Origin: Lama guanicoe | Lineage: Eukaryota | Length of the DNA: 64,000 bases | NCBI GenBank assembly: GCA_013239625.1 | Contig: MU053588.1 | Location: 335,988-399,987 of the forward strand | Reading direction: 5' to 3' | Shown here: in pieces, positions 12,072-14,002 of the stretch | How the letters are laid out: every line of letters begins with the position of its first letter | How positions within the stretch are numbered: the stretch's first letter is position 1 | The notes under the pieces: model-generated | What the model was told of the DNA's origin: nothing | The model's database searches: none | What the model saw: only the letters and a program-made list of their open reading frames with translations | Translations under genes and position numbers: made by a program

Positions 12072-14002
12072 TCATAGATAAACTTGCGATCCATGACTGA
12101 AGTCTATCCCACATTGCTTATATTCAAAAGATTTCTCACTGATATGAATTCTTTGATGCTGAGTTAGTTGTGAACCGCGAGTAAAGGCCTTCCCACATTC
12201 CTTACACTGATATGGTTTCTCACCAGTATGGACTCTCTGATGTCGAGATAGATGTGAGCTCTGAGTAAAGGCTTTTCTACACTCTTTGCATTCATAGGGT
12301 TTCTCACCAGTATGGATTCTCTGATGTAAAGTAAGTTGAGAACCGTGACTAAAGGCCTTCCCACATTCCTTGCATTCATAGGGTTTTTCTCCAGTGTGAA
12401 TTCGCTGATGTTGAGTAAGCTGTGAACCACGAATAAAGGCCTTCCCGCATTCCTTACACTGATACGGTTTCTCACCTGTGTGAATTCTCTGATGCTGTAT
12501 AAGTAGTAAGCCACGAGCAAAGGCCTTCCCACATTCATTACATATATAGGGTTTCTCACCAGTATGAAGTCTCTGATGTTGAGAAAGATGTGAACTCTGA
12601 GTAAAGGCCATTCTACATTCTTTACATTCATAGGGTTTCTCACCAGTATGAATTCTCTGGTGTTGAGTAAGCTGTGAGCCACGAATAAAAGACTTCCCAC
12701 ATTCCTTACATTCATACGGTTTCTCACCAGTGTGAATTCTCTCATGTTGAGTAAGTTCTGAGCCACGACTAAAGGTTTTTCCACATTCTTTACATTCATA
12801 GGGTTTTTCACCAGTATGAATCCTTTGATGTCGAGTAAGGAGGGACCCACGATTAAAGGCCTTTCCACATTCCTTACACTGATAGGGTTTCTCACCAGTA
12901 TGAATTCTTTGATGTTGAGTAAGTTGTGAGCCATGACTAAAGGTCTTTCCACATTCCTTACATTCATAGGGCTTCTCATTGGTATGAATTCTCTGGTGTT
13001 GAGTAAGCTGTGAGCCACGGATAAAGGCCTTCCCACATTCTTCACATTTATAGGGTTTTTCGCCAGTGTGAATCCTCTGATGTTGCATAAGTAGTGAGCC
13101 ACGAATAAAGGCCTTTCCACATTCCTTACATTCATATGGCTTCTCCCCATTATGAATTTTCTGATGCTGAGAAAGCTGTGAGCCACAAATAAAAGCTTTG
13201 CCACATTCCTTACATTCATAGGGTTTTTCACCGGTATGAATTCTCTTATGAAGAATAAGTTGTGAGAGCTGTGTAAAGACCTTTCTGCATTCTTTACATT
13301 CATAGAGTTTCTCACCAGTATGAAGCCTCTGGTGGAGAGTAAGTTGTGAGTTCTGAGTAAAGGCCTTCCCACATTCTTTGCATTCAAAAGGTTTCTCCCC
13401 AGTATGGACTTTTTGATGTCGAGTGAGTTGTGAGCTACGAATAAATGCTTTCCCACATTCTTCACATTTATACGGTTTTTCACCAGTATGAATCCTATGA
13501 TGTAAAATAAGTTGTGAGCTCTGAGTAAAGGCCTTCCCACATTCCTTGCATGCATAGGGTTTCTCACCAGTATGAAGTCTCTGATGAAGACTGAGTTGTG
13601 AATCACGACTAAAAGCCTTCCCACACTGCTTACATTCATAGGGTTTTTCACCAGTATGAATACTCTGATGCTGAGTTAGGTGAGAGGCTCGTCTAAAGGC
13701 CTTCCCACATTCCTTACATTTATAAGGTTTCTCAGTAGAATGACACCTGGGATGTTGAGATAAGTAAGTATTATGGTTGAAAATAGACATTTGTTCATAT
13801 ATGATCATCCCTTGTCTGAAATATTCCTCCGGATTTTCTTGTTGCTTTTCCAACGTGCTGTTGACGTCCAAATAGTCTCTGGAACTGGGCTCCTCAAGAT
13901 CACAGTTTTCAAGCCTGGCACTCATTTCCCATCGGGACAATTCTGTTTCATAAGTGTCTTCTTTTGGAGACAAGTCCTTGTTTGCACTCCTTGAAGGCAA
14001 GT
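12072..14002 (-). CDS. ZNF420: ZNF420 (Apak) last coding exon: linker + 19 tandem C2H2 zinc fingers + degenerate terminal finger
   Basis: ORF 12072..14021; acceptor tctttcag|AC at 14002 (phase 1, G|AC=Asp); 19 CxxC..HxxxH fingers with TGEKPY linkers; sequence DLPSR...[16 protein letters not shown]...[11 protein letters not shown] closely matches human ZNF420 as I recall it; spliced length 688 aa. Confidence 0.95.

Follow-up and report, generated by a model that had tools for sequence, protein, structure and literature searches.

The window (the whole 64,000-nucleotide stretch of Lama guanicoe DNA analysed here) carries two KRAB zinc-finger genes on its minus strand, ZNF420/Apak and a neighbouring paralogue, here termed paralogue B, the features of which are collected in Table 1. 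Spliced in silico, ZNF420 encodes a protein of 688 amino acids with a KRAB-A box, 19 C2H2 fingers and no internal stops, and both introns between its coding exons (n = 2) have canonical GT donors and AG acceptors. The span given for the first exon comprises the coding bases only, with the 5' end lying beyond it, and the upstream CpG island is probably the ZNF420 promoter. A search of the intron following the KRAB-A exon found no KRAB-B exon or remnant. One review table, from a source available in part, lists Apak as KRAB-A+b; the human ZNF420 fragment (P0001) and the window gene both join KRAB-A straight to the linker that precedes the fingers. In paralogue B the first finger is degenerate and the second has a proline in its helix.

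Two LINE-1 3' ends (19342-21032 and 23769-24426) lie in a ZNF420 intron and a third (58601-60309) sits in the opposite orientation within paralogue B's first coding intron; the three are about 89-90% identical to each other. Older LINE-1 copies (69-75%) are found near 3500-4470, 6250-7380 and 38780-39600. The repeats are presumably LINE-1 elements, a label given to them from their ORF2-like translations.

Table 1. Features of the two KRAB zinc-finger genes and of the Ser68 site in the window (positions are those of the whole window).
Feature	Position	Strand	Remarks
CpG island upstream of ZNF420	37001..38000	.	GC 0.60-0.61; CpG observed/expected 0.87-0.91
ZNF420 first coding bases (Met-Ala-Gln)	28579..28587	-	GT donor next; MAQ start also in hippopotamus, sheep and pangolin orthologues
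ZNF420 KRAB-A exon, 127 nt	27200..27326	-	PF01352, E 5e-28; residues 1-45 identical to hippopotamus (45/45)
ZNF420 last coding exon: linker (residues 46-138), 19 C2H2 fingers and stop	12072..14002	-	
ZNF420 linker	13746-14002	-	
ZNF420 codon 68, TCC (Ser68)	13935..13937	-	Reported ATM phospho-acceptor of human Apak
ZNF420 codon 69, CGA (Arg)	13932..13934	-	Contains CpG; Gln in other ZNF420 orthologues
Paralogue B first coding bases (Met-Pro-His)	61198..61206	-	GT donor next; MPH shared with the goat, cattle and bighorn orthologues
Paralogue B KRAB-A exon	57549..57675	-	PF01352, E 1.5e-25
Paralogue B KRAB-B exon, 96 nt	57174..57269	-	Splice sites canonical; identity to ruminant orthologues 79-81%; no Pfam match
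Paralogue B linker and 17 C2H2-pattern fingers	51955..53678	-	Protein of 651 aa, no internal stop
Paralogue B S100-Q101 (TCT CAG)	53608..53613	-	Homologous to ZNF420 68-69; ancestral in the family

Searching short proteins with the linker gave 7/7 candidates, among them human ZNF420 and fragments of the sheep and pangolin proteins, and cluster look-ups added the chimpanzee, orangutan and hippopotamus proteins. In a tree of 19 linkers the window gene falls inside the ZNF420 clade (nine rows) with support of 100/99, apart from the paralogues. The window gene is an intact ZNF420/Apak orthologue. Like human Apak, for which a KRAB domain at the N-terminus and 19 C2H2 fingers are described in the available part of PMC7926519, it has 19 consecutive fingers and a serine at residue 68, in the same linker; the two proteins are identical at 42/45 positions of the KRAB box, 71/93 of the linker (about 74%) and 25/25 of the first finger region (residues 139-163). 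Hippopotamus ZNF420 isoform X3 (XP_057568332.1, P0010) shares with it the MAQ start, the complete KRAB box, 78/93 linker residues (about 81%) and 136/137 residues of fingers 1-5 (residues 139-275). The original prediction had described the fingers as nearly unchanged, which holds over those compared, namely fingers 1-5 in hippopotamus and finger 1 in human.

Further searches for orthologous material added little. No full-length ZNF420 orthologue was recovered by the linker search among proteins of 353-1126 aa (0/14 candidates), exact look-up of six Met-start forms from the window found 0/6, and a search for longer orthologues gave ten matches among 129 candidates, all of them partial. Scans for orthologous DNA produced one weak locus from 259 pattern matches in metagenomes and six finger-only loci from 265 pattern matches in genomes, and an ESM Atlas search produced only generic zinc-finger clusters. 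The window ZNF420 linker lacks the one-residue deletion that is seen in sheep ZNF420 and in ruminant paralogue B, and residue 108 is arginine in the window, human and pangolin proteins and serine in those of hippopotamus and sheep. The absence of the ruminant-specific deletions, together with Arg108, would fit a camelid sequence without proving it.

The minus strand reads TCC CGA at 13932..13937 and the serine is residue 68 after splicing, so that S68-R69 is present as originally predicted and the S/T-Q motif at the Apak regulatory site is absent. S68-Q69 is found in 9/9 further orthologue rows with coverage of these residues. They are the rows of human (P0001), chimpanzee (P0008), orangutan (P0009), sheep (P0004), hippopotamus (P0010) and pangolin (P0006), along with P0003, P0005 and P0020. 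Not counted among the nine are same-cluster or human/ape-identical duplicates (P0002, P0015, P0016, P0017, P0035, P0036 and P0037) and rows starting past the site (P0007, P0011-P0014 and P0022). This is a thin sample of three named orders, without an Old World camel, pig, horse or named rodent or carnivore. The possibility, raised earlier, that R69 is widespread in non-primates fails in the orders sampled. Since S68-Q69 occupies all nine of these rows, R69 is, on the alignment, the derived state.

The site is otherwise well conserved. An alignment of 11 rows, orthologues and close paralogues, shows almost no variation at S68, Q69 and W70, and even P0020, with a linker that is only ∼48% identical, still keeps SQW. 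Column 69 is Gln in 16/18 other linkers, orthologues and paralogues taken together, the two exceptions being paralogues with Arg (P0021) and Asn; its conservation, tied at 0.89, is listed 11th of 81 columns. A compensating new SQ or TQ in the window linker was considered and rejected, as none arose there: the only SQ/TQ motifs before the fingers are at S16 and S127, both of which human has as well, and the finger region and tail contain another 27. The window protein retains Ser68 and the acidic context upstream of it (ETEL). The AlphaFold model for hippopotamus ZNF420, with a pLDDT below 50 over residues 36-97, is uninformative on the structure of the site.

The sequencing runs bear on whether the base is real. 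Eleven DNA runs, from 11 samples, four organism labels and four studies, contain 1.00 of 80 words sampled from 13700-14500, and under random sampling the chance that no sampled word covers position 13933 is 0.03. The suggestion that CGA could be an assembly error is countered by these runs, and such an error at codon 69 is unlikely. The 11 belong to 24 runs listed in order of likeness and are all possible sources of this DNA, so that they weigh more against an isolated error than in favour of fixation; RNA runs (shares of 0.23-0.49) were left out of this evidence. A second reading of the site is that R69 is a segregating allele or is limited to part of the clade, with no lineage-wide change, the extreme form being a plain assembly error. 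The codon is suited to this, as CGA holds a CpG and would revert to CAA (Gln) by the commonest kind of mutation, and a ranking by likeness would push carriers of another allele lower. Three runs from a fifth organism (organism E) contain 0.97, 0.91 and 0.90 of the sampled words, and two unflagged runs of that organism thus lack 9-10% of them, the equivalent of ∼2-3 SNPs somewhere in the sampled span. Against these points, the full matches extend over many samples and several studies and the base has little chance of having escaped the words; polymorphism or error is considered distinctly unlikely as the explanation.

The linker as a whole has changed more than the domains that flank it. At 51 sites that are invariant in all other rows the window linker has seven private changes (Q69R, S84P, E91D, Q103P, K116Q, Q122H and H123N), two of which, S84P and Q103P, introduce prolines. 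The corresponding counts over the seven rows or lineages compared (chimpanzee, orangutan and P0020 being left out) are 7/51 for human, 1/45 for hippopotamus, 2/46 for sheep, 4/39 for pangolin and 6/50 and 0/31 for two further rows. The window linker therefore has more private changes than those of hippopotamus, sheep and pangolin, all of which keep S68-Q69. Glu91 is present in 18/18 other linkers, and the window departs from the consensus at three of the 21 columns that are conserved at 80% or more. The presence of S84P, Q103P and E91D beside Q69R suggests, at the level of sequence, that the whole linker is under relaxed constraint. If the seven changes fell randomly among the 51 sites, site 69 would be hit with P = 0.14 and site 68 or 69 with P = 0.26. 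By this measure the loss of SQ is within the range of a drifting linker, yet it falls at a constrained site.

The meaning of the site comes from human cells. In the accessible parts of three reviews, the human protein is described as a partner of p53 that brings in KAP1, HDAC1 and ATM and dampens genes promoting apoptosis, and after DNA damage ATM phosphorylates Apak at Ser68 and the complex dissociates (PMC7926519, PMC3587991, PMC3731817). The identification of Ser68 as the ATM site of human Apak, given in the original prediction, is borne out by two of them as far as their available text goes (PMC7926519, PMC3587991). The accompanying claim that ATM needs glutamine at +1 is backed by the portion available of PMC11327452, in which kinases of the ATM family seat this glutamine in a conserved hydrophobic cage. 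The same portion names DNA-PK as a known exception that accepts Phe, Ile, Leu or Val at +1, and records that radiation-induced phosphosites outside S/T-Q exist (PMC11327452). One paper, in the part available, places p53 binding by Apak in the KRAB domain; in PITA and PISA it is placed in the fingers.

Because ATM needs the +1 glutamine, phosphorylation of Ser68 by ATM is probably lost or much reduced in the window protein. An alternative is that damage still leads to phosphorylation of Ser68, either by a different kinase or by ATM docked on the KAP1 complex, with regulation unchanged. The retained serine and its acidic ETEL context would allow this, and Apak recruits ATM into its own complex, as described in the available sections of PMC3587991 and PMC3731817; radiation-induced sites outside S/T-Q provide a precedent in the accessible text of PMC11327452. 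The +1 glutamine cage is, however, conserved according to the same text, and the relaxed motif calls for a bulky hydrophobic residue at +1 rather than arginine: S68-R69-W70 does not match the non-canonical DNA-PK motif S/T-(F,I,L,V)-D/E in that source (PMC11327452). Continued phosphorylation is considered highly doubtful.

The explanation that is favoured, and considered probable by a modest measure only, is that this is an ordinary intact ZNF420/Apak with a lineage-derived Q69R, in which one direct off-switch is lost and the net effect is small. ATM, ATR and DNA-PK would no longer phosphorylate Ser68 well, while the R69 protein would still bind DNA and recruit KAP1 through its unchanged KRAB box. 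It would behave like a phospho-dead mutant, lacking one direct DNA-damage off-switch, and phosphorylation of KAP1 and p53, ARF or gene silencing could still break the complex. In the parts available of the papers concerned, the release of Apak also involves p53 and KAP1 being phosphorylated, both of them ATM substrates too, and two further routes, ARF and silencing by H3K9me3, do not depend on Ser68 (PMC4753255, PMC4235398, PMC7926519). Given these parallel routes and a linker that drifts under relaxed constraint, the effect in the animal may be small, and Q69R was probably tolerated rather than selected. The contrast between the conserved KRAB box (45/45) and fingers (136/137) and the looser linker (78/93), all relative to hippopotamus, is counted in favour of this explanation. 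The seven private changes (P = 0.26) and the other release routes likewise lower the surprise of Q69R. Two points weigh against it. The near-invariance of S68-Q69-W70 implies a real constraint on the site, making neutral loss less likely, and a single site can be decisive, as S18A-mutant PITA and S58A-mutant PISA bind p53 constitutively in the available text of PMC5951852.

The related proteins deserve comparison at this point. PITA/ZNF475 S18A and PISA/ZNF568 S58A are phospho-dead and remain bound to p53 under stress, according to the part available of PMC5951852, and ZNF205 T43A keeps repressing p53, according to that of PMC13045463. All three have lost an N-terminal ATM site. They differ from R69 in being engineered, in removing the acceptor instead of the +1 residue and in concerning other genes. 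Such single phospho-dead mutants, which keep repressing p53 in the text available (PMC5951852, PMC13045463), lend weight to a stronger reading, namely a functional rewiring in which camelids are fixed for R69 and their Apak is a p53 brake that is insensitive to DNA damage, with a higher death threshold and possibly under selection. This would also agree with the conservation of the site everywhere else sampled and with a protein that is almost unchanged elsewhere. It is at odds with the six other private linker changes and the 0.26 chance of 68 or 69 being hit, and with the existence of other routes of Apak release; in addition, the literature found contained no test of the Apak-p53 circuit outside human cells, and a literature search for phenotype data gave nothing relevant. 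Rewiring is considered unlikely. A related claim, that camelids have fixed a natural phospho-dead Apak which remains on p53 when DNA is damaged and, at the species level, dampens apoptosis that depends on p53, is thought quite improbable. The window protein, a putative binder of p53 that may have lost its ATM control, differs from human Apak in having Arg for Gln at 69 and in the loss of the S/T-Q consensus. It may be, in any case, that only part of the circuit known from human applies here, since the p53 elements linked to apoptosis in human, that of P53AIP1 among them, show poor conservation outside primates, with rodents as the yardstick, in the accessible part of PMC1934401.

Paralogue B enters the argument through its own SQ. 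The original prediction placed SQ at the equivalent site of the neighbouring paralogue, and this part stands, TCT CAG being found at 53613-53608 in a homologous aligned column; the serine is residue 100 rather than 68, because an extra KRAB-B exon (57269-57174), missed in that prediction, lies upstream. It had further been proposed that the regulated role could lie with the paralogue, which is unsupported. Paralogue B is an intact neighbour with SQ in the column that corresponds to 68-69, as would be expected if the ATM-regulated Apak role had been handed to it. Its linker is 34% identical to the ZNF420 linkers of the window and of human alike, and in the linker tree it groups at 100/100 with goat, muntjac and deer proteins and two further rows. 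A clade of its own at this support and the low linker identity imply that the split between paralogue B and ZNF420 predates that between human and artiodactyls. SQ occurs in 7/7 other B rows that cover the site (P0023, P0026-P0030 and P0033), with goat, muntjac and deer among them; the rows from cattle and bighorn stop short of it. Since sheep ZNF420 and goat B both have SQ, the motif is an old state in both genes: that of paralogue B is ancestral and is kept in ruminants, where sheep ZNF420 keeps its SQ as well. Only 5/17 finger triplets (positions -1, 3 and 6) of paralogue B are found anywhere in ZNF420, and these, the KRAB-B box, the serine at residue 100 and the lack of visible recent gene conversion all speak against a takeover, which is considered extremely improbable.

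Two simpler relationships between the genes were also rejected. Recent gene conversion has left no sign, the finger exons of ZNF420 and paralogue B being at most 79.6% identical in DNA sequence with a longest exact match of 37 nt. Nor does paralogue B look like a recent ZNF420 copy that would serve as a second Apak, given the 34% linker identity, the separate clade, the 5/17 triplets and the presence of KRAB-B. The ruminant KRAB-A+B genes (P0026, P0027 and P0029-P0032) are orthologues of paralogue B, with 74-81% linker identity, the same KRAB-B exon and the same SQ, and the MPH start of the window gene is shared by the goat, cattle and bighorn orthologues. Their names ('ZNF566-like', 'ZFP82 homolog' and 'KRAB domain-containing protein 5-like') are automatic and inconsistent, and to our knowledge these orthologues have no known function. 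No primate orthologue of paralogue B was present among the ten matches of the search for longer proteins.

No report of Q69R in camelid ZNF420 was found in a literature search by title and start of abstract, a scope that leaves most subscription papers and supplements outside, and residue 68 may already have been aligned across species in the original description of Apak or its supplement. The loss is natural, concerns a conserved ATM motif and is real and apparently unreported, with an expected effect that is modest; Q69R is a single substitution in a known gene and no new kind of system. Its interest is that the Ser68 switch is described from human cell work only in the literature found, and that the camelid protein provides a ready-made control, near-unchanged and without the +1 glutamine. 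Normal release of p53 in camelid cells would indicate that the Ser68 switch is dispensable or redundant, and failure to release it would indicate that camelids differ in the threshold for death after DNA damage. Should Apak prove to be phospho-dead in these animals, they would allow the importance of the Ser68 switch to be judged in a living mammal, as an experiment set up by nature.

C2H2 finger arrays were also met in bacterial and archaeal assemblies. Those on the short contigs L003 and L004 (CAYPJH010000071.1 and CAYPJH010000174.1; 2-3 kb), L005 and L007, which sit in Methanobrevibacter, Spirochaetales and Ruminococcus assemblies and are 38-72% identical to the hippopotamus query, are probably eukaryotic contamination. 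An uncultured Holophagaceae assembly contains, on a 5.7 Mb contig (CAVQVX010000001.1, L002:55-1971, plus strand), a 638-residue open reading frame that combines a SET domain (PF00856, E 5e-9) with a TGEKP-linked run of C2H2 fingers (PF13465, E 8e-32), a PRDM-like layout that is unusual for bacteria. Its GC content of 0.61-0.73 throughout the locus and its lack of introns make it look native rather than host contamination, and its N-terminus resembles a signal peptide by eye.
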